A model generated the notes under the pieces. That model searched no databases and was not told the DNA's origin. It saw only the letters and a program-made list of their open reading frames with translations. From IMG/VR virus record IMGVR_UViG_3300043313_001602: DNA of 15,741 nt. One strand, written 5' to 3'. Shown here piece by piece: positions 2,082 through 15,741 of this stretch (position 1 is the stretch's first letter; every line of letters starts with the position of its first letter). Position numbers and translations under genes: made by a program. The DNA comes from a virus.

Positions 2082-2351
2082 CGATGGTTGTACATGGATA
2101 CCGTGTAACAACGGTTAGTGTCACAGGGCCGTGAGGCGCTGTTACGCGGCCGGGTGGGGTGATCGGGCGTGACCCCCCACCCGGCCGCGTGAGGCGGGCA
2201 CGTGGGCGGGTGGACGGGACTTCCGGGTTACGTCACCCTCGGGAGGGTGCCGCTATTCACCCGAGGCCGGACCTTCCCACCGCCGCCTCTGCCGCCACCA
2301 CCGGTACCGCCGGCACCGCCGCCGGGCGGCCACACCCTCGGGCCCGAGGGT
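2082..2351 (+). promoter_or_regulatory. Atypical noncoding spacer between terL and portal (low-GC GTAAC-repeat island plus two GC hairpins)
   Basis: Stops and poor GC3 in all frames over 2082-2200. GTAAC-containing words at 2077-2087, 2104-2114 and (inverted) 2137-2145. A TAGTGT -10-like hexamer at 2116-2121. A hairpin caccct-cggg-agggtg at 2234-2249. Confidence 0.5.
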
Positions 2352-2357
2352 GTGGCC
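2328..2357. repeat. Perfect 30-bp palindrome (15-bp arms, no spacer)
   Basis: ggccacaccctcggg|cccgagggtgtggcc was checked base by base. It spans the proposed portal start codon GTG 2352. Confidence 0.95.
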
Positions 2358-3476
2358 CCGGTCTCCGCCGTCTCCGCCACGATCACCGAGGCCATCGCGG
2401 CCAGGACCTGGGGACCCGAGCTCGACCCCTGGCAACTCCCCGTCGTGGTCGCCTGTAGGGGTCTGATCGCCGACACGATCGCCCAGCTCCCGCTCATCAC
2501 CCTGCGGGGACGCCGGCCGCTCCCAACCCAACCCATGCTCACCGTGCGCCCCAACCGGCTCGAACCGCGATGGCTCACGTTCCACCGGCTCGCCAACAAC
2601 CTCACCCGCTACGGCTACACGTGGCTGATCGTGACCGACACCGACGCCGCCGGGATCCCCGCCGCCGTCCGGGTCGTCGACCCCGCCGACGCGACCGCCT
2701 CCTGGGACCCGCTCACCGGCGACCTCGACACCGTCACCTACAACGGCCACGACCTAGTCCCCGGCCTCGAGGCCATCTGGATCCCGTTCCACGTCGAACG
2801 CAAAGCAAGCCTCGGGACCTCGCCGCTGGTCGACGCCGCGGGCGCCGTCGCCTACCTCACGCAGCTCTGGACCATGGCCGGGTCGTTCTGGGAAGCCGGC
2901 TACCCGAGCCTGGTCGTGAAGGTGAAACAACGGCTCAACCCCGGCCAGGCCCAACGCATCAAAGCCGATCTGATCACCTCGCTCGGCGGCCGCCACGAAC
3001 CCGGCGTGATCGACGCCGACGGCGACATCGGCCCCCTCGGCGTGTCCCCGCTGGAGGCCCAGCTCGTCGAGTCGATCGGCGCCGCCAACGCCGAGATAGC
3101 CCGGGCATTCCTCATGCCCCCCTCGCTCGTGAACGTCGCCTCCGGGGACTCGCTCACCTACTCCACCGTCGAGGGCGAGTTCCGCCGGTGGTTGGCCACC
3201 GGCCTCGGCGCCTACCTGAACCGCCTGGAATCGGCGTTCAACGACCTCACGCCCCGCGGGCAGACCTGCCGGTTCGACACGACCGAGCTCGTGCGGGCCG
3301 ACTTCGCGGCGCGCATCGAGGCGTACACGGGGATCCTCGCCGGTCAGGCGTGGATGACCGTGGACGAGGTCCGCGACCTGGAGGGACTCGACCCGCTGGA
3401 GGATCCCCCGCCGCCGTCCCCCGCGACCGTGCCCGCCGCCGCCACCACCCTCACCGACGCCCCACCGGGCGCCTGA
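2352..3476 (+). CDS. Portal protein (HK97 family)
   Basis: Portal-like core: ...LNPGQAQRIKADLITSLGGRHEPGVIDADGDIGPLGVSPLEAQLVESIGAANAEIARAFLMPPSLV... The gene follows terL. I set the start at in-frame GTG 2352, where GC3 bias begins. The track ORF starts at GTG 2202 (another in-frame GTG lies at 2247), but that extension is a poly-Pro stretch with weak codon bias. Confidence 0.9.
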   Translation: MAPVSAVSATITEAIAARTWGPELDPWQLPVVVACRGLIADTIAQLPLITLRGRRPLPTQPMLTVRPNRLEPRWLTFHRLANNLTRYGYTWLIVTDTDAAGIPAAVRVVDPADATASWDPLTGDLDTVTYNGHDLVPGLEAIWIPFHVERKASLGTSPLVDAAGAVAYLTQLWTMAGSFWEAGYPSLVVKVKQRLNPGQAQRIKADLITSLGGRHEPGVIDADGDIGPLGVSPLEAQLVESIGAANAEIARAFLMPPSLVNVASGDSLTYSTVEGEFRRWLATGLGAYLNRLESAFNDLTPRGQTCRFDTTELVRADFAARIEAYTGILAGQAWMTVDEVRDLEGLDPLEDPPPPSPATVPAAATTLTDAPPGA

Positions 3477-3493: not shown

Positions 3494-5218
3494 ATGGCCC
3501 GATCCCCCGTCCTGGCCCGCACGCTGATCGAGGCCGCCCCTACCGCCACCCTGGCCCGCCGCTCGGCTCAGCCCGTGCACCTCGACGACGCCGGCACCCT
3601 CACCGGGCGCCTCGTCCCGTGGGACACCCCGGCCGAGGTCGACGACGGCACCGGCCGCTACACCGAATCGTTCGCCCGCGGTGGGATCACCGCCCGGGCC
3701 GGCGCCGTGATCCCCGTCTACGCCGGTCACTCCGTCGACTCCCGGGGACGGCTCACCCGCGGCCCCCTCGTCGGCCGCCTCGACGGCGCCGAGTCCCGCG
3801 AGGACGGGCTGTACGGGACCGTGGTCCTGGCCGACGTCCCCGCCGCCGCCGAGCTGCGGGCCCTGGCCCGCACCGTCGGCGCCACGTTCTCCGTCGAGTT
3901 CGAGGCCGAGCCCGCCGTCGGATCCGTGGTACGCACCGGGATCGAGCTCGACGGGGTCGCCGTGCTCACCCTGCCCCACCGGGGCGCCTACGCCGGCGCC
4001 GAGGTCCTCGCCGTGCGGGCCGCCCCCGACGGCGACGAGGAGCCCGACGAGGACGAGGGCGACGACGGCGGCGACGACGGCGGCGACACCCCCACGACAC
4101 CGGTGCCGGGCGCGCCGACCGCGGCCCGGGCCGTGATCGCCCGCGAGGTGCAACGGGCGTTGGGCCGCGTCGCCCGCCCGCTCGCCCACCCCCTGCAACG
4201 GTTCTCCGGGCCGTTCGAGTTCTACGAGGCCGCCCGGGCGTCGAGCTCGGACGAGCTGCCGCTGTTGTTCCGAGACGCCTACCAGGCGCACCGGGCGCGG
4301 GTCACCCTCGGCCGCGTGTTCGTCGACCAGATCACCACCGACAACCCCGGCGTCGTCCCCCCCGCGTGGCTGACGGAGATCTTCGGGATCCTCGACACGG
4401 GCCGCCCGGTGATCAACGCGATCGGCACCCGGCCGCTGCCGCCGTCGGGGATGGAGGTCGACTGGCCGTACTTCGACGGCGACCTCCACGCCCTGGTCGG
4501 CGAGCAGACCCTGGAGAAGGGTGACGTCACCTCCGTGAAGGTGTCGTTCAAGAAGGCCTCGACGCCGATCAAGACCTACGCCGGCGGATCCGACATCTCC
4601 TGGCAGCTCATCCGCCGGTCACAGCCCGCCTACCGCGACGCCTATCTCCGGGTCCTGAACGCCGCTTACGGGGTCGTCACCGACAACGTGGTGGGCGACC
4701 TGCTCCCGGTCGTGCCCGGGCACCAGACCGTCGACTATGACGTCGCCGCGGCGGACCCCGACGGCGCCGCCCTCAAGGCCGCGGTGTTCGAGGCCTCGTC
4801 CCTGGTGCAGGTCGCGACCGGTTCGCCGGCCTCGTGGGTCCTCGCTTCCACCGACGTGTTCCTCGCGTTCGGTGGCATGCCATCGATGGTCGCCTCGCCC
4901 TACGGGACGCAGAACGTGCCGGGCACCGCCACCGCCTCGACGCTCGACGTCAACATCTCCGGCCTCAAAGTCACCCTCGCGGCGGACCTCGCCGCCGGTA
5001 CCGCCATCGTCGGCAACACCGCGGCGGCGGCGTGGATGGAGGACGGGCCGTTCGTCGTGGCGGCGCCGGTGATCCCCAAGCTCGGCGAGGACGTCGCCGT
5101 GTGGGGCATGGGCGCGTTCGCCGCGTTCATCCCCGCCGGGATCGTCGTGCTCACCAACGTCGTCGCCGCCGACCAGGCCACCGCCGGGTCCCGAGGCAAG
5201 AGGACCTCGGACCGGTGA
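3494..5218 (+). CDS. Prohead protease - major capsid protein fusion (HK97-type)
   Basis: GGAGG lies 7 nt upstream of ATG 3494. The N-terminal ~175 aa carry protease-like motifs (GRLVPWD, VYAGHSVD, FSVEF). An acidic linker DGDEEPDEDEGDDGGDDGGD sits at about nt 4027-4089. A ~380-aa HK97-fold-like capsid region follows in the same uninterrupted frame. Confidence 0.85.
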   Translation: MARSPVLARTLIEAAPTATLARRSAQPVHLDDAGTLTGRLVPWDTPAEVDDGTGRYTESFARGGITARAGAVIPVYAGHSVDSRGRLTRGPLVGRLDGAESREDGLYGTVVLADVPAAAELRALARTVGATFSVEFEAEPAVGSVVRTGIELDGVAVLTLPHRGAYAGAEVLAVRAAPDGDEEPDEDEGDDGGDDGGDTPTTPVPGAPTAARAVIAREVQRALGRVARPLAHPLQRFSGPFEFYEAARASSSDELPLLFRDAYQAHRARVTLGRVFVDQITTDNPGVVPPAWLTEIFGILDTGRPVINAIGTRPLPPSGMEVDWPYFDGDLHALVGEQTLEKGDVTSVKVSFKKASTPIKTYAGGSDISWQLIRRSQPAYRDAYLRVLNAAYGVVTDNVVGDLLPVVPGHQTVDYDVAAADPDGAALKAAVFEASSLVQVATGSPASWVLASTDVFLAFGGMPSMVASPYGTQNVPGTATASTLDVNISGLKVTLAADLAAGTAIVGNTAAAAWMEDGPFVVAAPVIPKLGEDVAVWGMGAFAAFIPAGIVVLTNVVAADQATAGSRGKRTSDR

Positions 5219-6917: not shown

Positions 6918-7426
6918 CCACCCGGCCCCGCCGCTCGACCGGCGACCGGTCCATCGACGCCGACCTCCACGTCGAGGGCCTACAGGAGACCCTGCGGGCG
7001 TTCAACCGGTACGGCAAGGACGCGAACCGCGAGCTGCGCCAGGCCGCCGGGAACATCGCCGATCAGCTCGTCCCCGCCCTCATCCTCGCCGCCGGCTCCG
7101 CCTCGCCGCAGGCGGCGCTGGTGGCCCCGACCGTCAAGCGACGCTCCGATAGGGTGCCGACGATCGTCGCCGGCGGGAGCAAGCGGATCCGGCCGAACAC
7201 CAGGTCCAACCGGCGGGTCACCGCCGGCGACGTGTTCTTCGGGTCCGAGCACGGCGGCGGCCGCCGCCCCTCGACCCGCCAGTTCCCCGAGTGGGTCGGC
7301 AAGTCCGGCTACTGGTTCTGGCCGACGGTCCGGGCCGCGATCCCGGTGCTGCGCCGCGAATACATTCGCACCCTCGACGAGCTCGCCGCCCGCTGGGCCC
7401 GGGGAGGGGACGAGGCCGGTGGCTGA
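6914..7426 (+). CDS. HK97 gp10-like tail-completion/neck protein
   Basis: Internal ATG 6914 of track ORF 6824..7426 (ATGA overlap). The pattern ...LQETLRAFNRYGKDANRELRQAAGNIADQLVPAL...VFFGSEHGGG...YWFWPTV... resembles the gp10 family. Its position after the chaperones is unusual. Confidence 0.55.
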   Translation: MTTRPRRSTGDRSIDADLHVEGLQETLRAFNRYGKDANRELRQAAGNIADQLVPALILAAGSASPQAALVAPTVKRRSDRVPTIVAGGSKRIRPNTRSNRRVTAGDVFFGSEHGGGRRPSTRQFPEWVGKSGYWFWPTVRAAIPVLRREYIRTLDELAARWARGGDEAGG

Positions 7427-9011
7427 TCGCGACATCGCCGTCAAGTTCACCGGCGACAGCTCCGACCTCGAGCGCGCCAGCAACCAGGCCGAGCGGTCGG
7501 TCGCGGATACCGGCAAGTCCATGGGCGGCGCCCTGGCCGGTCTCGCCGGGCCCGCGGCGATCGGCGCCGCCGCCATCGCGGGGGTCGCCATCGTCGGCTA
7601 CGACCTCGCCCAGGCCGCCATGGAGGACGAGGCCGCCGCGAGCCAGCTCGCCCAACAGCTCCGCCAGGCCGCCGGCGCCTCGGACGAGGCCGTCGCCGGC
7701 GCCGAGGCCTACATCTCGACCCTGTCCAAGGCGGCCGCCGTGGCCGACGACGAGCTCCGCCCCGCCCTGGCCACCCTGGCCACCGCCACCGGCGACACCA
7801 CCAAGGCCCAGGACCTGCTCGCCCTGGCCACCGACATCAGCGCCGGCACCGGCAAGGACCTCGGCACCGTCACCCAGGCCCTGGCCAAAGCCCAGCTCGG
7901 CTCCATCGGTGGCCTGTCCAAGCTGGGGATCGCCACCGAGGACGCCGACGGTAAGGCCCTGTCGCTCGAGGAGACCCTGGCCAAAGCCCGCGACACGTTC
8001 AAGGGCGCCGGCGAGGCCGCCGCCAACACCAGCGCCGGCGGCATGAAGAAAGCTCAGATCGGGTTCGACGAATTCAAGGAGTCCATCGGCGCCAAGCTCC
8101 TGCCGGTCCTGGGCACCCTGTCGACGTTCTTCACCGAGAAGGTGCTCCCGGGGATCGAGTCGCTGGTCGCGTGGGTCGAGGAGAACTGGCCCCGGATCAT
8201 GGCCGAGATTCAACCGTCGCTCACCGAGCTGCAGACCCTGGTGTCCGAGGTCCTCACCAACATCAGCTCGTTCTGGACCGAGTGGGGCGACGAGATCATG
8301 GCCCTGGTCGGGCGGATCGCCGAGCTCTGGGTCACCGAGATCGTCACCAAGATCAAGATCGCGATCGCGATCATCACGTGGATCGCCGACACCATCAAGG
8401 CGTTCTGGGCCGAGTGGGGCGACGAGATCATGGCCGGCGTCAAGTCCGTCGCCGACTTCATCAACGGGGTCGTCACCTGGATCGGCGAGTTCTGGCTCGA
8501 GTGGGGCGACGAGATCACCGAGGGTGCCCGTACCGCGTTCGACATCATCATGTCGATCATCCGGTTCGCGATGGACACCATCGGATCCATCATCAAGTTC
8601 ATCACCGCGGTGATCACCGGCGACTGGGGCGGCGCCTGGGACGCCGTCAAGTCCATCGTGCGCGGCGGGGTCGACTTCGTCCTCGACCTGATGGGCCGGA
8701 TCGGGGGGCTCATCCGCGACGCCCTGTCCGGCGTCGCCGACCTCATCACCAAGCCCTTCAAGATCGCGTTCAACGCGATCGCCGATCTCTGGAACAACAC
8801 GATCGGCGCCCTCAATTTCACGTTCCCCGACTGGATCCCGGGCCTCGGCGGCAACCGGATCGACGTGCCCGACATCCCCCGGTTCGCAACCATGGGCGCG
8901 CTCACGATCGTCATGCCCCCGGGATCGGACGGCTACGACGTCGCCCGCCAGGTCACCTCGTTCTCCCGCAACGTCGCCCCCATGGGCACCCTGACGGTGG
9001 CGGTCCGATGA
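7419..9011 (+). CDS. Tape measure protein
   Basis: Longest real ORF (530 aa). Ala/Leu-rich helical N-terminal half. Three FWxEWGDEI repeats. An Ile-rich hydrophobic central segment. The gene sits before the Dit-like gene. Confidence 0.9.
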   Translation: MADRDIAVKFTGDSSDLERASNQAERSVADTGKSMGGALAGLAGPAAIGAAAIAGVAIVGYDLAQAAMEDEAAASQLAQQLRQAAGASDEAVAGAEAYISTLSKAAAVADDELRPALATLATATGDTTKAQDLLALATDISAGTGKDLGTVTQALAKAQLGSIGGLSKLGIATEDADGKALSLEETLAKARDTFKGAGEAAANTSAGGMKKAQIGFDEFKESIGAKLLPVLGTLSTFFTEKVLPGIESLVAWVEENWPRIMAEIQPSLTELQTLVSEVLTNISSFWTEWGDEIMALVGRIAELWVTEIVTKIKIAIAIITWIADTIKAFWAEWGDEIMAGVKSVADFINGVVTWIGEFWLEWGDEITEGARTAFDIIMSIIRFAMDTIGSIIKFITAVITGDWGGAWDAVKSIVRGGVDFVLDLMGRIGGLIRDALSGVADLITKPFKIAFNAIADLWNNTIGALNFTFPDWIPGLGGNRIDVPDIPRFATMGALTIVMPPGSDGYDVARQVTSFSRNVAPMGTLTVAVR

Positions 9012-10949: not shown

Positions 10950-11717
10950 GTGTCCCGCCTGACGGTGGCGCCGCTCGCCGAGTACGACCTCTCCGGGGGA
11001 CGGGTGATCATCACCTCGCCCTACGGCGACGGCCGCAATCACAAGGGCGTCGACTGGGGCACCACCGACGGCATCGAAATCGGCACCCCCCTGTTCGCGC
11101 CCGTCGACGGGCACATCTCCAACGCCGGCGACGACGGCCCCTACACCCCCGAGGGCGGCCACACCGCCGGGCGGTGGCTGTGGTTCGCCGGCGACAACGG
11201 CACCCGCTGGAAGATGTTTCACCTGAATCGGGTGACGGGCCCGGCCGGGGTCTGGTTGGCCGCCGGTACCCCCATCGCCGAGGTCGGCAACACCGGCACC
11301 CAGGCACCCCACCTCCACCTCGAAGAGCACCGCGAGGGCTCCTGGTCCTCGCCCGTCGACTTCACCGCCGACGCCTACGAGGTGATCGAGGCCGGGCGGT
11401 GGCCCGGCACCCGCCCCCCACCGGAGGAACCCGACATGACCGACGACGACCACAACAGGATCATGGCCAACGTCGGCGCCCTGCTCGACAACCGCATCGC
11501 CCAGTTCCTCACCGCGAGCCTGCTCTGGACCGACGGCGACCTCGCATTCGAGGTCGTCACCGACGGCGACGGCCACCGGGTCCGCCGCCGCCTCGCCCCC
11601 GGCGAGCTCGTCGCCCTCCGCACCGGCGCCGCCATCGCCGAACAGCCCGCCATCGACGTCACCCGCCTCGCCCAAGCCCAGGCCGACGCCGTGCGCGCCT
11701 GGCCGCTAGTCGACTGA
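10950..11717 (+). CDS. Endolysin, M23-family metallopeptidase with C-terminal extra domain
   Basis: HxxxD-like NHKGVDW and the HxH motif in GNTGTQAPHLHLE. 255 aa. The C-terminal ~95 aa follow a Pro-rich linker, and an in-frame ATG at 11436 is preceded by GGAGGA. Confidence 0.85.
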   Translation: MSRLTVAPLAEYDLSGGRVIITSPYGDGRNHKGVDWGTTDGIEIGTPLFAPVDGHISNAGDDGPYTPEGGHTAGRWLWFAGDNGTRWKMFHLNRVTGPAGVWLAAGTPIAEVGNTGTQAPHLHLEEHREGSWSSPVDFTADAYEVIEAGRWPGTRPPPEEPDMTDDDHNRIMANVGALLDNRIAQFLTASLLWTDGDLAFEVVTDGDGHRVRRRLAPGELVALRTGAAIAEQPAIDVTRLAQAQADAVRAWPLVD

Positions 11718-11999
11718 ATCGGGGAAGTCGACCGCCTCGGTCGGCCGCAACACCACCCGCTCGGCCCGCCCGTCCCCCGTCTCCGCCGCGTCCGACAGGA
11801 CGTTGTGCAGACCCAGGAAGAAGTCGTGCAGGTCATCCATGGCGCCGGCGAACAGTAGTTGCGACGGCCCGTAGGTGCCGCCTCGGACATCGACGTGGAA
11901 CCGGCGCCGGTCGGGGTCGTCGTCGATGGGCGGCACCTCATAGGCGTGAAGCGTGGTGACACCGCGGACTTGGACGGACGGCCGATCGACATAGGTCAT
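11706..11999 (-). CDS. Hypothetical protein (only minus-strand gene)
   Basis: 97 aa with strong GC3 bias on the minus strand. The ATG lies 6 nt downstream of a TAGGCT hexamer (leaderless-type arrangement). It is divergent from parA, and its 3' end overlaps the endolysin stop by 12 nt. Confidence 0.7.
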   Translation of the reverse strand: MTYVDRPSVQVRGVTTLHAYEVPPIDDDPDRRRFHVDVRGGTYGPSQLLFAGAMDDLHDFFLGLHNVLSDAAETGDGRAERVVLRPTEAVDFPDSVD

Positions 12000-12042
12000 A
12001 CCATCAGCCTATCAGCCCTCAGCCATCAGCTAGGCTGTTCGG
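12000..12042. promoter_or_regulatory. 43-bp divergent leaderless promoter region packed with (A)TCAGCC repeats (candidate partition site/operator)
   Basis: atcagcc at 12003-12009 and 12011-12017, tcagcc at 12019-12024, atcagc at 12025-12030, and inverted ggctg at 12033-12037. TAGGCT at 12031-12036 (+) lies 6 nt before ATG 12043. TAGGCT on the minus strand (12011-12006) lies 6 nt before the minus-strand ATG at 11999. Confidence 0.6.
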
Positions 12043-12753
12043 ATGACTACTGTTATCAGTGTTGCCCATGTCAAGGGCGGTGTCGGGAAGTCGACGACCG
12101 CCGTGCAGCTCGCCCTGCACGCCGGTGCCACCGGCCGCCGGACCATGCTTATCGACGCCGACCCGTCGCGCTCGACCCTGTCGTGGGCGACCCGGGCCGG
12201 GGACTGGCCGACCGAGGTGGTGCCCGTGGAGGGGTACTGGCGGGCCGACCTCGAACGAGCCGTGCCAGCCCTGGCCTATGACTGCGACCTCGCCGTCATC
12301 GACACGCCGCACGACCCGGCCGGCCGGCACCACGCCGGGGTGGTGATGATCTCCGCCATTGTCGCGGCCGACCTGGTGGTGGTGCCGACCTCGCCCGACG
12401 GTGCCGACCTCGACCGCATGGAGGACCTGCTGGCCGCGCTCGACGTCGGCCAGCTCGACCGCCAGCAACGTGGTCTCGGCCCCGTCGACTGGCTCGTGGC
12501 CCTCACCCGGGTCGACCTGCGTAGAAGGACAATCGCGGCCGAGGTCGTCGAGCTCATGGTGAACCGCGACCTGCCGGTCCTGCCGATCGCGGTGCCCTCC
12601 GCCCTGGCCGACGGGCACGCCACCTCGACGTGGGTTCCCGAGCGGGCCGCCGTCGAGGACGCATTCGGGACGTCCACCGTGCTCGACGAGTACGCCGGCC
12701 TAGCCACCGCCGTCCTCGCCCGGGCCCTCGGGACCACGGTGGCCCCGGCATGA
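12043..12753 (+). CDS. parA: ParA/Soj-family partition ATPase (small, type Ib-like)
   Basis: Deviant Walker A KGGVGKST at the N-terminus, then LIDADP and a Walker B-like AVIDTP. 236 aa with no N-terminal HTH domain. The downstream small RHH gene overlaps by ATGA. Confidence 0.85.
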   Translation: MTTVISVAHVKGGVGKSTTAVQLALHAGATGRRTMLIDADPSRSTLSWATRAGDWPTEVVPVEGYWRADLERAVPALAYDCDLAVIDTPHDPAGRHHAGVVMISAIVAADLVVVPTSPDGADLDRMEDLLAALDVGQLDRQQRGLGPVDWLVALTRVDLRRRTIAAEVVELMVNRDLPVLPIAVPSALADGHATSTWVPERAAVEDAFGTSTVLDEYAGLATAVLARALGTTVAPA

Positions 12754-13013
12754 GCCGCGACACGCAACGCCCGACGATCCCGGCCTCGACCCGCCCTGCC
12801 CCCGACCCCGTCCCGCGGCGACCCAAGCGCTTCACCATGGACCTGCCCCCGGACAATCACACGATGCTCCGGCTCTGGGCCCTCGACCGCCAGGTGCCGG
12901 CCTCGCTGCTCGTCATGACCCTGGTCGATCTGGCCATCAACGACCCGGCGATACGGGCCCGGGTCGAGCACATCGCCGCCGACCAGTGGGAGGCACGATC
13001 AGCCCGTCAGTAG
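12750..13013 (+). CDS. Ribbon-helix-helix (ParG/CopG-like) DNA-binding protein, probable centromere-binding partner
   Basis: Internal ATG 12750 of track ORF 12630..13013 (ATGA overlap with parA). 87 aa with a disordered basic N-terminus, then KRFTMDLPPDNHTMLRLWALDRQVPASLLVMTLVDL (beta strand plus two helices). Confidence 0.65.
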   Translation: MSRDTQRPTIPASTRPAPDPVPRRPKRFTMDLPPDNHTMLRLWALDRQVPASLLVMTLVDLAINDPAIRARVEHIAADQWEARSARQ

Positions 13014-13050
13014 TCAGTAGTCAGCCGTGATGATGGGCTGCATTCAGCCC
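12999..13050. repeat. Second TCAG(CC/TAG) repeat cluster with hairpin at the 3' end of the par operon
   Basis: atcagcc at 12999-13005; tcagtag, tcagtag and tcagccg at 7-bp spacing (13007, 13014, 13021). Hairpin gggctg-catt-cagccc at 13035-13050. Confidence 0.6.
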
Positions 13051-13422
13051 GCAAACCCCCTCGGGCGGGTGACGGTGGTGTCAGAAACGGGCTCCTAGTG
13101 GATGCTCTGCGCCCGGTCCACATACACCCGTCCGAGGGGGGAGTGAGCGCGTGAGAGCAAGGTTAGCGGGCCCTGGCCGCGCCTGCTTGGGGCCGGTTCG
13201 GGGTCGCGTCATAACCGGGATTATCGGCGGATCACCCACCCCGACCGTGCTGAGGGAACCCTGAAGGGCCCCGAGCCAGCAAGGTGATGTAACAACGACC
13301 TACCGTGTCAGGATGCACACGCGCAACGGCCCGGTGTCGAGAGGGAATGGTCATCCCTCGACCCCGGGCCGGTGCCAGAACAGTCCCTACAACCGACGCC
13401 AATCGAAAGCAGGTGACCTGAG

Positions 13423-13872
13423 GTGAACCCTAGCCTCGGCCGCGCCCATCTCCGCAACGTCGCGACCCCCGACCCGGCACCGCCGCCGCTCGACCTCACG
13501 GCTAAGCAACTCACCCTCGTCGAGGCGAACCACCCGACCGTGCAGGCCCGCCAGCGCGCCGTGGCCGACGCCGTCCTCGCCGGCCACTACCGAGGCCGCG
13601 ACGGCCGGGCCCACGCGTTCCAGGCGCGTCACCGCGAGGTCATGTCCTGGCTCTGCATGCTCGCCAACCGCGACGGCGAGGTCCGCCCCGAGGTCATGAC
13701 CGCGGGCCGCCTGGCCGACCGCCTCGGCCGGACGCACACCAACGTCTGCGCCGACCTGCGCGACCTCGAGACTGCCGGACTGCTGTGGCGCCGCGCGCTG
13801 CCAGCAACGCGGGGACCGCTGTACGTGTACTGGGTCCCCGGGATGATGGCTCCCGTCCGGGCCGCCGAGTGA
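13423..13872 (+). CDS. Winged-helix DNA-binding protein (candidate replication initiator or repressor)
   Basis: 149 aa with good GC3. wHTH-like segment TAGRLADRLGRTHTNVCADLRDLETAGLLWRR. The gene ends 15 nt before the three perfect 24-bp repeats, and a degenerate copy overlaps its stop codon. Confidence 0.7.
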   Translation: MNPSLGRAHLRNVATPDPAPPPLDLTAKQLTLVEANHPTVQARQRAVADAVLAGHYRGRDGRAHAFQARHREVMSWLCMLANRDGEVRPEVMTAGRLADRLGRTHTNVCADLRDLETAGLLWRRALPATRGPLYVYWVPGMMAPVRAAE

Positions 13873-13886
13873 TCCCCAGGGCCGTG

Positions 13887-13960
13887 CCCAGGGTGATGCT
13901 GGGGCATCACCCCAGGGTGATGCTGGGGCATCACCCCAGGGTGATGCTGGGGCATCACCC
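13887..13960. repeat. Three perfect tandem 24-bp repeats made of alternating inverted 9-mers (iteron or operator array)
   Basis: The unit cccagggtgatgctggggcatcac occurs at 13887, 13911 and 13935. GGGTGATGC and GCATCACCC alternate with 4-nt (tggg) and 2-nt (ca) spacers. A degenerate copy lies at 13869-13886. Confidence 0.95.
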
Positions 13961-14045
13961 CTATAGGGAGACCAAAGAAGAGACCACTACTGAGACAGGC
14001 CCCTGTAGTCGCGCGGTCCGCGCGACAGGCCCTGTGGATCAGACG

Positions 14046-14082
14046 TTGACGCCGTGCCCGATCGGGCAAATAGGCTTCAGGT
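14046..14082 (+). promoter_or_regulatory. Putative leaderless promoter for the 14083 operon
   Basis: TTGACG (14046-14051), a 19-nt spacer, TAGGCT (14071-14076), 6 nt, then GTG 14083. This is the same TAGGCT-N6-start geometry as the two par-region promoters. Confidence 0.55.
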
Positions 14083-14433
14083 GTGATCAGCCAACCGCCT
14101 CTCCTGCCGCCACCGGCCAAGCCGCTGGCCGCCGCTCGGGCGGCGGTGAGAAGGGCGCGAGAAAAGGCGCTGACAGCGGTGCCGACGCCGAGCTCGCTGA
14201 CACCACCGGGATCCGCTCCCCTGTCACACCCCCGCCCTACGGTGGGGGAGGTGCCCCGAGGTCGACCGGCCGCCCCCGTCCCACCGCATGGCACGCGCGC
14301 CCGGTACAACCACCGCACCGACCCGTGCCGATGCACCCGCTGCCGCGTAGCGAACACCCGGTACATCGCCGCCTACCGAACCCGGACCGCCCTCGACGAG
14401 CACCACGACCAGGCCGAGGTTCTCGCCCGATGA
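14083..14433 (+). CDS. Small protein with HGTxxxYxxxxxCRCxxC Cys motif (putative zinc-binding/DNA-binding regulator)
   Basis: The 116-aa C-terminus PPHGTRARYNHRTDPCRCTRCRVANTRYIAAYR matches a motif recurrent in actinophage and actinomycete-element DNA-binding proteins. ATGA overlap with the next gene. Confidence 0.6.
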   Translation: MISQPPLLPPPAKPLAAARAAVRRAREKALTAVPTPSSLTPPGSAPLSHPRPTVGEVPRGRPAAPVPPHGTRARYNHRTDPCRCTRCRVANTRYIAAYRTRTALDEHHDQAEVLAR

Positions 14434-14792
14434 CGAGCTCGCTCGACACCCGCCCGCAACGGCTCGACCTGAAGCTGTACGGCGGCGACGACACCGTGAT
14501 CCGGCTCACCGTCCTCGACTCGGCCGGCGCCCCGCTGGATCTCTCCGCGGGCGAGCTGCTCGCCCAGGTCCGTCCCAAGCCCGGCGACGACGAGCTCACG
14601 TGCACCCCTGTCCTCGACACCACCGAGGCCGCCCTCGGGGTCGTGTACCTGCTGTTCGCCGCCGCCTGCACCCGGGCACTGGCCGCCGGGAAAATCCACG
14701 CGTGGGACCTGCGCTACCGCGTCGCCGGGCTCGACGAACGGCTCTGTAGCGGCACGATCCACGCCCAACCCGAGGTCACGGTCGACCCATGA
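14430..14792 (+). CDS. Ig-like (BppU N-terminal-like) minor tail protein
   Basis: Internal ATG 14430 of track ORF 13785..14792. 120 aa with the pattern LKLYGGDDTVIRLTVLDSAGAPLDLSAGELLAQVRP...WDLRY...GTIHAQPEVT, typical of phage fibre/baseplate Ig-like domains. It is translationally coupled to the fibre gene. Confidence 0.55.
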   Translation: MTSSLDTRPQRLDLKLYGGDDTVIRLTVLDSAGAPLDLSAGELLAQVRPKPGDDELTCTPVLDTTEAALGVVYLLFAAACTRALAAGKIHAWDLRYRVAGLDERLCSGTIHAQPEVTVDP

Positions 14793-15487
14793 TCGAGGCC
14801 GAGATCGTCGTCCCCGCCGAGACCGTCGCCGTGATCGGCGCCCGCGCCGGGGCCCCCGGCCCCGCGGGGCCCCCGGGCGAACCCGGGCCCGCCGGCCCGC
14901 CCGGGCCCGAGGGTGACCCCGGTCCCGCCGGCCCGCCCGGCCCCACCGCCGTGAGCTCTGTCGACGGGCGCACCGGCGCCGTCACCCTCACCGACCGGTA
15001 CGTCGACACCGGCGGCGACACGATGACGGGCACGCTGAACGCGCCGTCGATCGCCCTCGGCGCGACACCGGCGACAACGGGAACAGTCCGCCTGACTAAC
15101 AACCAGGGCATCGTTTCTCGGAACGCCGCCGGCGACGCCGACCTGCACATCGCGTCGGTGTCGGCCACCAACGTGATGCAATTCGGCGTCGGCCCTGCGG
15201 CCTGCCAATTCAGCTCCAATACGTCGATCAAATTCTTGATCAGCGGGATTCGTCAGCTCGAATTCCTACCCTCCGGAGTAAGTCTCGCCGAGGGACTGGT
15301 CTTCATCTGTGGGACGACCACCGGCAACCGGATCGGCACGGCGGCCACGCAAAAGCTCGCCTTCTTCGGCGCCACCCCCGTGGTGCGCCCCACCGCCACC
15401 CCGGCGGCGGCCACCGACCCGGCCACGACCATGGCCCTGGTCAACGACCTGCGGGCGAAACTGATCGCCCTCGGTCTGATCGGGTGA
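14789..15487 (+). CDS. Tail fibre with collagen-like Gly-X-Y repeats
   Basis: GAPGPAGPPGEPGPAGPPGPEGDPGPAGPPGP, then the fibre motifs SVDGRTGAVTL and GGDTMTGTL. The actinophage minor-tail C-terminal motif KLAFFGATPV...LGLIG is also present. Confidence 0.85.
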   Translation: MIEAEIVVPAETVAVIGARAGAPGPAGPPGEPGPAGPPGPEGDPGPAGPPGPTAVSSVDGRTGAVTLTDRYVDTGGDTMTGTLNAPSIALGATPATTGTVRLTNNQGIVSRNAAGDADLHIASVSATNVMQFGVGPAACQFSSNTSIKFLISGIRQLEFLPSGVSLAEGLVFICGTTTGNRIGTAATQKLAFFGATPVVRPTATPAAATDPATTMALVNDLRAKLIALGLIG

Positions 15488-15732
15488 GACCGTACGACGA
15501 GCCCGAACACCGGGCCCTGTCGGCTCGGCTCAAGTCCGTCGAGGTGCAGTGCTGGCGGTGTCCCGCCCGGGCGAGCACCGTGGACCATGTGCCCCCGCTC
15601 GCCCGCCATCAGCACCGCCACGGCACCCGATGCTGCGAGCTGCGCCCCGCCTGCCCGGCGTGCAACTACTCGACCGGGTCCCGCCTCGCCCGCCGGGCAC
15701 GGCGCCCCGCTCCCACGTCGAGGGCGTGGTGA
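15484..15732 (+). CDS. HNH endonuclease (terminase-associated type)
   Basis: 82 aa. CWRC...DHVPPLARHQHRH...CPACN forms an HNH/zinc-finger pattern. It lies next to the terS/terL genes across the circular junction. Confidence 0.85.
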   Translation: MRPYDEPEHRALSARLKSVEVQCWRCPARASTVDHVPPLARHQHRHGTRCCELRPACPACNYSTGSRLARRARRPAPTSRAW

Positions 15733-15741
15733 TCGGCGCCC
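15673..15741 (+). repeat. Terminal direct repeat, copy 2 (identical to 1-69)
   Basis: Exact 69-nt identity with the window start. The offset of 15,672 bp gives the unit genome length. Confidence 0.97.

Follow-up and report, generated by a model that had tools for sequence, protein, structure and literature searches.

What is the role of the short repeats that flank a small parA operon in the viral genome record IMGVR_UViG_3300043313_001602? This stretch of 15,741 nucleotides (hereafter the window) carries a parA gene followed by the gene of an 87-residue ribbon-helix-helix (RHH) protein, with one cluster of TCAG-type units upstream of the two genes (array U) and a second one at their downstream end (array D). 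We interpret the locus as a type Ib partition cassette (ParA plus an RHH ParB) of a small temperate phage, probably maintained as a plasmid-like prophage, in which the arrays would act as centromere and operator. We estimate the probability of this interpretation at about 0.72. It is based on the 8-7-7 phasing shared by the arrays, the ParF-like ParA, the RHH fold, the co-variation of the repeat word between U and D, and the similar layout in phage RedRock. The promoter geometry found in six of six clade members, the negative searches for integrase and Rep genes and for close ParA relatives in representative genomes, the binding of such units by known RHH proteins and the conservation of the unit cores in one close relative point the same way.

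The features of the locus are the following:

11706-11999, minus strand: 97-residue gene, conserved beside parA in the clade and sharing the repeat-filled promoter region
12003-12038, plus strand: array U, with ATCAGCC at 12003, ATCAGCC at 12011, TCAGCC at 12019, ATCAGCT at 12025 and an inverted ACAGCC(T) at 12032-12038
12006-12011, minus strand: -10-like TAGGCT, 6 nt before the ATG of the 97-residue gene
12031-12036, plus strand: -10-like TAGGCT, 6 nt before the parA ATG, overlapping the last direct unit and the inverted unit
12043-12753, plus strand: parA, coding for a 236-residue deviant-Walker-A ATPase, small type Ib and ParF-like
12750-13013, plus strand: gene of the 87-residue candidate centromere-binding protein, its ATG overlapping the parA TGA
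12998-13027, plus strand: direct units of array D, ATCAGCC at 12998, TCAGTAG at 13007, TCAGTAG at 13014 and TCAGCCG at 13021
13035-13050, plus strand: hairpin part of array D, with inverted GGGCTG at 13035-13040 and direct (T)CAGCCC (arm CAGCCC at 13045-13050)
13051-13422: conserved noncoding element nc1, always found after array D

Anatomy and enrichment of the two arrays

Array U occupies the whole 43-bp gap between the start of the 97-residue open reading frame (ORF; 11999, minus strand) and the parA ATG (12043). Its direct TCAG cores (TCAGCC at 12004, 12012 and 12019, TCAGCT at 12026) follow each other start to start at 8, 7 and 7 bp. Units 1, 2 and 4 have a preceding A, and the inverted unit reads GGCTG at 12033-12037. 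Inspection of the sequence confirmed the four direct and one inverted units that an earlier sequence-only reading had described as filling this divergent promoter region. A short-repeat array overlapping the promoter upstream of parA is a type Ib trait, and the five units at 12003-12038 form such an array.

In array D, the TCAG cores are located at 12999, 13007, 13014 and 13021, with the same 8-7-7 spacing as in U. The direct units cover the last five codons of the 87-residue ORF and its TAG stop (13011-13013), which lies inside the second unit. Further downstream, GGGCTG and CAGCCC can form a hairpin with a 6-bp stem and a CATT loop, and the second arm includes another TCAGCC at 13044. This hairpin is a possible operon terminator. 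The minimum free energy fold of 12996-13055 (-17.0 kcal/mol) does not contain the 6-bp stem, but pairs the inverted unit with the first direct unit. For this downstream cluster, the sequence-only reading was correct about the two TCAGTAG copies, TCAGCCG and the hairpin, and misplaced the start of ATCAGCC by one base (given as 12999, correctly 12998). The inverted copies it listed are indeed present, not as the exact word but with five of six matching positions (ACAGCC, GCAGCC). The window has no third repeat cluster.

The frequency of the hexamer, suggested as a check in the same reading, was determined over the complete window. TCAGCC was found 13 times on the two strands together, against 7.8 ± 2.7 in shuffled sequences, and six of these copies fall within U and D, all of them on the plus strand. 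Relative to the rate outside the arrays, three copies in U compare with 0.021 expected (Poisson, P=1.4e-6) and three in D with 0.028 (P=3.5e-6); thus the hexamer is enriched in the clusters and is not equally frequent elsewhere. For the degenerate motif TCAG[CT][CA], the two richest 60-bp intervals of the genome correspond exactly to the U and D clusters (5 and 3 matches). Among 300 dinucleotide-shuffled sequences, the highest number in any 60 bp was 1-2; a value of 3 was reached in just four shuffles and 5 in none. Tandem Repeats Finder detected period-7 arrays at 12001-12030 and 13006-13024 only, genome-wide. The remaining short-period arrays are almost all found within coding DNA, with periods divisible by 3. 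A chance origin of the arrays was ruled out by these enrichment statistics together with the co-variation of the word across relatives described below.

ParA and the 87-residue protein

The Walker A motif of ParA (KGGVGKST) is located at residues 11-18, which leaves no room for the helix-turn-helix (HTH) domain at the N-terminus of type Ia proteins, and none is present. The protein matches Pfam AAA_31 and CbiA, and the PHROG ParA-like family (E=8e-30). In the PDB it matches 3cwq and ParF (4dzz). The match to NCBIfam ParA_partition (E=2.4e-28, 99 bits) is under the 180-bit cutoff of that family. The GC content at third codon positions (GC3) is 0.89, supporting a coding function. A small deviant-Walker-A ParA without HTH is a further type Ib trait, and the assignment of this gene to the small type Ib ParA proteins, already made from the sequence alone, holds.

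The 87-residue gene is also supported as coding by its GC3 of 0.88. The protein has a disordered basic N-terminal tail and an RHH core made of a strand (residues ~26-33) and two helices (34-47 and 51-64); a further helix (66-86) is located at the C-terminus. The AlphaFold2 (AF2) model has a pLDDT of 83.8, with low confidence for residues 1-25, followed by the extended strand and the helices. A Foldseek search with this model returned mostly RHH proteins (StnY, McdB, ParG, CopG, Arc, MatP and antitoxins), with rmsd values of 1.1-1.4 Å over the core. A search with the single sequence recovered one near-identical protein only; therefore the alignment was built from related loci. A profile search gave 36 family proteins, none of them on a contig longer than 15.7 kb. 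The family profile ranked ParG of TP228 (1p94) as its top match in the PDB (E=0.002), with ParD and CopG next among RHH proteins, and Pfam RHH_1 matched 2 of 11 family members.

Homologues of the 87-residue protein are encoded directly after parA in every related locus, and all family members examined show translational coupling of the gene to parA. Among the residues that do not vary are the pair Arg7-Pro8 of the tail, and R27, D31, H37 and S52 of the RHH core. In a clade with long palindromic operators, N replaces T29. Type Ib systems carry a small RHH protein with a flexible N-terminal tail directly after parA. The presence of such a protein here is well supported by alignment and model but not proven, no single score being strictly significant. 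It agrees with the ParG/omega-like protein that the sequence-only reading had predicted.

A putative promoter region shared by two divergent genes

The start codons of parA and of the 97-residue gene are arranged as mirror images, GTCATACCATCAGCCTA (11995-12011) pairing with TAGGCTGTTCGGATGAC (12031-12047). Reading of the sequence revealed no Shine-Dalgarno-like sequence before either ATG. A TANNNT hexamer is located 6-8 nt ahead of both starts in six of six clade members (the window, L006, L007, L008, L103 and L112; L-numbers designate the extracted relative loci). Three more distant relatives have GGAGG-type sequences before parA instead. In actinobacteria, leaderless transcripts are characterised by a TANNNT hexamer at this distance from the start codon, and both divergent transcripts are predicted here to be leaderless. 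If this signature applies, both promoters would lie wholly inside array U. Occupancy of the array would then switch off the parA-RHH operon and the 97-residue gene jointly, in line with the shared control of the divergent gene that the sequence-only reading had put forward. Scans for sigma-70 promoters and intrinsic terminators in 11850-13450 detected nothing, but these consensus models are unsuited to a 72% GC genome of actinobacterial type.

Co-variation of the repeat word in related elements

Relatives of ParA with 50-67% identity were found on viral and metagenome contigs of 15.0-16.0 kb. Both U and D are present in ten related elements of about 15 kb, which belong to the clade with the 97-residue gene. 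The repeat word varies among the elements (TCAGCC, TCAGTAG, ACCGTAG, CGTA-type) and matches between U and D within each of them:

Window: TCAGCC, three copies in U and three in D
L006: ACCGTA(G), two copies in U and three in D
L008: TCAGTA / CAGTAG, 3-4 copies in U and 3-4 in D
L103: CAGTAG, four copies in U and three in D
L131-L133: CGTA-type units at both sites, exact-word sharing being looser in L132
L124 and L007: TCAG-type units at both sites

The relatives have 3-8 units per site, often in a palindromic arrangement. The position of D, together with a word matching that of U, was also found in L006, L008, L103 and L131-L133.

L123 is 88% identical to the window at the DNA level, and its RHH protein is 97% identical to that of the window. 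In array D of L123, all TCAG cores and the GGGCTG/CAGCCC stem are kept, and the spacers between and after them are changed. Its array U contains a 15-bp insertion corresponding to two units, one of which is TCAGTAG. This comparison indicates that TCAGCC and TCAGTAG would be interchangeable for what is essentially one protein, and that the arrays evolve by whole units. Judged from these alignments, the arrays behave in the relatives as protein-binding sites, and not as chance repeats or a mere terminator. We consider this comparative evidence to be the strongest argument for reading U and D as arrays of protein sites.

The sequence-only reading had placed the 3' cluster at the end of the RHH gene. 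This is the case in the window; across the relatives, the cluster follows the 5' edge of nc1, not the RHH stop codon. Indeed, it is located at the 5' edge of the conserved noncoding element in 10 of 10 clade elements. L124 and L007 have one extra gene after the RHH gene, and their second cluster comes after this extra gene (overlapping its TAG stop in L124). In a more distant clade (L009-L017), parA is preceded by a long palindrome, and the RHH gene is not followed by a cluster.

Additional clusters were detected in two relatives. L015 has four ACTGACCT units at 1560-1590, between the TGA stop of a tail-module gene and a gene coding for a 504-residue tape-measure-like protein. In L008, a third cluster (852-883, TCAGTAG CTACTGA CCTACTGA GGTACTGA) ends 2 bp before the ATG of the M23 peptidase gene. 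These positions suggest that the RHH protein may also regulate lytic or structural genes. Taken with the association of the 3' cluster with the noncoding element, the extra clusters indicate that the RHH protein probably acts at several places, like omega of pSM19035.

Comparison with known partition systems

The closest layout was found in the cluster A mycobacteriophage RedRock (locus L122), for which we used the published description (PMC7157519) and a direct reading of the sequence. When ParA was searched against phages by tblastn, RedRock gp37 was the best annotated match (32.5% identity, 96% coverage, E=1e-12), and matches were obtained in 161 Mycobacterium and 28 Gordonia phage records. 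The same search with the 87-residue protein gave no match. Upstream of RedRock parA, contiguous 8-bp TCGAGTAG-like units (1437-1497) run up to the ATG at 1498, and TAGAGT is located 7 nt before this ATG. Downstream, the units run from 2310, starting with TCGATTAG, whose TAG (2315-2317) is the parB stop. RedRock ParB binds both parS sites, and the cassette stabilises plasmids (PMC7157519).

The RedRock and window loci have several features in common. Their ParA proteins are homologous, and both ParB proteins are tiny (89 and 87 residues) with an RHH-like core. Both cassettes are located just after the tail/lysis genes of a phage without integrase. In RedRock, parS-L abuts the parA ATG, its last unit containing a TANNNT hexamer, and parS-R begins within the parB TAG stop; arrays U and D of the window are placed correspondingly. 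The RedRock units end in ...AGTAG, like those of the TCAGTAG relatives of the window. However, RedRock has about eight strictly direct 8-bp units per site, whereas the window has four direct and one or two inverted or extra units with a 7/8-bp spacing. The promoter region of the window, unlike that of RedRock, is shared with a conserved divergent gene. The noncoding element is downstream of parB in the window and upstream of parA in RedRock. The two ParB sequences can barely be aligned (hhalign probability 16%), and the host phages differ in size (15.7 kb for the window, 53 kb for RedRock).

The omega protein of pSM19035 recognises 7-bp units in either orientation at several promoters and regulates copS in addition to the par genes, and ParA activation requires four or more contiguous units (PMC9499535). 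Omega resembles the 87-residue protein as an RHH ParB with a flexible N-terminal tail. Its contiguous, non-palindromic 7-bp units, present in both orientations, overlap promoters as in the window, and there are several separate arrays per replicon. Both arrays of the window have four contiguous units, the number needed in pSM19035. Moreover, the mixed 7/8 spacing and the inverted units of the window are more omega-like than RedRock-like. In contrast, the omega unit (WATCACW) is unrelated, its arrays are longer (7-10 units), omega and delta do not form one array-flanked operon, and pSM19035 is a Firmicute plasmid and not a phage.

The ParB of pB171 is an RHH protein, and its upstream site parC1 doubles as an operator. 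Work by Ebersbach and Gerdes in 2001 and by Ringgaard in 2007 reportedly described 17-18 repeats of 6 bp per site in this plasmid. Construct maps of pB171 par2 give the order parC1-parA-parB-parC2 (PMC4270457). Like the window, par2 is thus a type Ib operon with upstream and downstream centromere arrays; it differs by its many more units and by its enterobacterial plasmid context. A repeat cluster at the 3' end of the operon, which had been called less usual from the sequence alone, is therefore not so, since pB171 par2 and RedRock have the same layout.

The centromere of TP228 is made of 4-bp boxes. ParG of this plasmid is the best solved-structure match of the 87-residue family, and its ParF is among the best matches of ParA. 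The Leifsonia plasmid pCXC100, an actinobacterial type Ib system, has an RHH ParB whose N-terminal domain is flexible; its parA is preceded by nine contiguous 9-bp direct repeats, which are also autoregulatory (PMC3074162). More generally, RHH centromere-binding proteins recognise contiguous units of 7-9 bp, in either orientation, over their own promoters (PMC9499535, PMC3074162). Unlike the window, pCXC100 and TP228 have a single upstream centromere; in addition, the pCXC100 unit is 9 bp long and its ParA has 317 residues.

From these comparisons, the locus of the window reads as a divergent type Ib partition locus with flanking centromere arrays, which is a known design and implies no new mechanism. 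The candidate split centromere and operator proposed in the sequence-only reading is upheld at the sequence level, as U and D share word and 8-7-7 phasing and co-vary in the relatives. By the same comparisons, what appears distinctive in the window is the smaller number of units, the mixed 7/8 spacing with inverted units, the shared divergent promoter and the attachment of D to a noncoding element.

Proposed mechanism and alternative explanations

In the mechanism that we propose, each TCAG unit of 7-8 bp would be bound by one dimer of the 87-residue RHH protein, with cooperativity along each contiguous array. Array U, which would overlie two back-to-back promoters for leaderless transcripts, would be both the operator of these divergent promoters and a centromere equivalent to parS-L. 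Its occupancy would repress the parA-RHH operon (autoregulation) and the 97-residue gene, and would simultaneously form the partition complex. Array D would be a second centromere, equivalent to parS-R of RedRock or parC2 of pB171, located at the end of the operon and at the edge of the noncoding element. As RNA, D would fold into a hairpin that may aid termination of the operon. The N-terminal tail of array-bound RHH protein, with its invariant Arg7-Pro8, would stimulate the ATPase activity of ParA on the nucleoid, leading to segregation of the copies. Such a cassette would be expected to stabilise an extrachromosomal prophage.

Several observations weigh against this interpretation. With 4-6 units, the arrays are short (RedRock has 8 and pSM19035 7-10), and two different words, TCAGCC and TCAGTAG, occur in D. 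Foldseek E-values for the model of the 87-residue protein are above 0.2, as expected for 40 residues, and searches of Pfam, PHROG and NCBIfam gave no match for the protein of the window itself. The hhalign comparison of its profile with RedRock gp38 ParB gave E=0.0015 with a probability of just 16%, and the alignment was confined to the RHH core. Elements with TCAGCC, TCAGTAG, ACCGTAG and TCAGGGTAC share the strand residues predicted to face the DNA (R27, T29 and D31), which therefore do not explain the specificity. A 149-residue winged-HTH-like protein, present in the relatives where it was looked for, is a possible alternative binder. Finally, the extra clusters before unrelated genes in relatives would fit a general repressor equally well.

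Such a repressor, omega-like or CopG-like, could use the arrays as operators only, without any centromere, and U would then act on the divergent promoters, while D would govern or stop transcription entering or leaving the noncoding element, for example in copy-number or lysogeny control. The overlap of U with both -10-like hexamers is consistent with this idea, as are the clusters before other genes in L008 (852-883) and L015 (1560-1590), the constant position of D at the 5' border of the noncoding element, also where an extra gene lies between D and the RHH gene, and the regulation by omega of copS as well as the par genes (PMC9499535). However, every member examined has its RHH gene in translational coupling with a bona fide parA, no TANNNT-like hexamer was found by eye beside D, and the corresponding RedRock sites are centromere-like parS loci bound by ParB (PMC7157519). 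Moreover, the operator of type Ib systems is the centromere DNA itself (PMC3074162, PMC9499535), so that operator function is compatible with partition. An exclusively regulatory role of the arrays is thus unlikely. A simpler role for D alone, as an intrinsic terminator or 3' stabilising hairpin of the par operon whose likeness to U is meaningless, appears highly improbable. It would suit the location of D at the operon end in all relatives, the GGGCTG/CAGCCC stem kept in L123, and the RNA folds calculated for D (-17 kcal/mol in the window, -29.7 in L006, -28.1 in L008 and -13.3 in L103). But a terminator needs neither four phased direct TCAG units with the 8-7-7 spacing of U nor a word that changes in step with U in about ten elements. 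Furthermore, the stable stem of the window is not formed by the four direct units, the consensus scan was negative and there is no T-run.

The repeats might also be iterons or operators of another protein (the 149-residue winged-HTH-like protein or the 97-residue protein), used for replication initiation or immunity. As there is no recognisable Rep gene, replication must depend on some set of repeats; the conserved noncoding element next to D is a possible origin, and a 149-residue or similar HTH-like gene follows this element in the window, L124 and L132. Iterons, however, are typically ~17-22 bp long, unlike the 7-8 bp units of U and D, and contiguous units of this size in both orientations are the signature of RHH binding. 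A better iteron candidate is found elsewhere, namely the 24-bp palindromic units at 13887-13961. The 97-residue protein has no DNA-binding fold match, and in RedRock, whose layout is homologous, binding is reported for the small ParB (PMC7157519). We therefore regard this explanation as very unlikely and prefer the type Ib partition cassette.

An extended form of the partition cassette can be envisaged, which is possible but doubtful. The window would belong to an undescribed family of tailed phage-plasmids of ~15-16 kb, whose RHH protein would be both the centromere protein and a master repressor of lytic or accessory genes, as the clusters ahead of M23 peptidase and tail genes in relatives suggest, and D would couple the partition complex to an RNA-type origin in nc1. 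In that case, the words TCAGCC, TCAGTAG, ACCGTAG, CGTA-type and TCAGGGTAC would define incompatibility or immunity groups, and the mixed TCAGCC/TCAGTAG arrays of the window and L123 would catch a specificity transition under way.

For partition biology, the locus provides a very divergent, minimal example of a known design, with 4-6 units per site and both promoters within 43 bp. The series of relatives, in which the centromere word changed and the predicted DNA-facing strand residues did not, is material for the study of RHH specificity and of the evolution of incompatibility. The phage context outweighs the repeats: the presence of parA-parB in a 15.7-kb tailed phage with no detected integrase or Rep suggests that plasmid-like lysogeny extends to the smallest tailed-phage genomes. 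The complete small phage genome and the structured noncoding element beside D are more novel than the repeats. The compact par-plus-noncoding module could also provide a small replicon and stability cassette for use in high-GC bacteria.

The phage genome carrying the locus

Positions 1-69 of the window are identical to 15673-15741, indicating a circular assembly and a genome of 15,672 bp, with a GC content of 72%. In contigs with an identical ParA, the fibre gene reads directly into the small terminase gene, which confirmed the circular permutation. Scans with Pfam, PHROG and related families identified head-tail and tail genes in addition to the following genes:

374-727: small terminase (TerS)
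654-2081: large terminase (TerL)
2202-3476: portal
3494-5218: major capsid protein (MCP)
7419-9011: tape measure, 530 residues
10950-11717: M23 peptidase
13423-13872: 149-residue winged-HTH-like protein
14789-15487: collagen-like fibre protein

Scans of the complete genome with Pfam, PHROG and other families detected no integrase, no recognisable repressor and no Rep protein among the proteins of the window. Plasmid maintenance genes (ParA and RHH) are thus found within a complete tailed-phage genome without integrase match, and the prophage is probably extrachromosomal and plasmid-like. Known phage-plasmids have a median size of ~68 kb (PMC7969092); the window and its relatives are a candidate family of unusually small ones.

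Known phages are remote relatives only, the portal being ~26% identical to mycobacteriophage portals. At the DNA level, blastn of 11600-13400 gave no match against phages, and just a 90-bp Walker-A stretch against plasmids. No close relative of ParA (above ~40% identity) was present in 185,579 representative genomes; therefore neither a host nor an integrated copy can be identified from them. The composition profile of the genome displayed no origin-like signal, only a slightly lower GC content in the noncoding regions. A 26-bp tandem repeat (80-137, 2.3 copies, 82% matches), a possible packaging site, precedes the small terminase gene within the part of the window where the circle closes.

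The 97-residue gene has GC contents of 0.76/0.42/0.85 at the three codon positions, which supports it as coding. It is convergent with the M23 peptidase gene, and the ends of the two genes overlap by 12 bp. Eleven homologues were found, with 52-100% identity, on contigs of at most ~15 kb except for one 23.5-kb contig listed for an identical sequence. They share the invariant motif DLHxxxLGLHNV...DGRAE...PTEA. Pfam, PHROG and NCBIfam gave no match for this protein. Its AF2 model (pLDDT 72.7) has a beta3-alpha fold; Foldseek matches of the model to COMMD, PX and dsRBD proteins were of low probability and unrelated, and were discarded.

The noncoding element nc1 and the region 3' of it

In an alignment of four elements, nc1 has a mean column identity of 72%, with long invariant blocks such as CATAACCnGGATTATCGGCGGA. 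It is more conserved than the neighbouring proteins, the ParA of the aligned elements being only 61-67% identical. The element opens with a long hairpin (13056-13078 / 13118-13140), and another hairpin is located at ~13338-13383. Compensatory changes were found in 14-19 of the predicted pairs. In L007 and L124, nc1 comes after the extra gene, again with a unit cluster ahead of it. An Rfam search of 12900-13500 returned sub-threshold hairpin look-alikes only (a nematode sRNA, miRNA precursors), which were rejected as chance matches. For RedRock-type prophages that have no RepA, replication is reported to proceed through a noncoding RNA region next to par (PMC7157519), and by analogy nc1 could be a noncoding RNA or an RNA-type origin.

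Further downstream, the noncoding region 13873-14405 contains 3.1 perfect tandem copies of a 24-bp unit, CCCAGGGTGATGCTGGGGCATCAC (13887-13961), each internally palindromic. At the end of these repeats, CCTATAGGGAGACC (13960-13975) resembles a T7-type promoter initiation region, and it is kept in L103 (~4895-4910), right after the 24-bp repeats. This likeness is probably coincidental, because no phage RNA polymerase is encoded in the window. The array is located directly after the gene of the 149-residue winged-HTH-like protein, and may serve this protein as an iteron or operator array. L103 carries these repeats as well, and L007 is 88% identical over the region.

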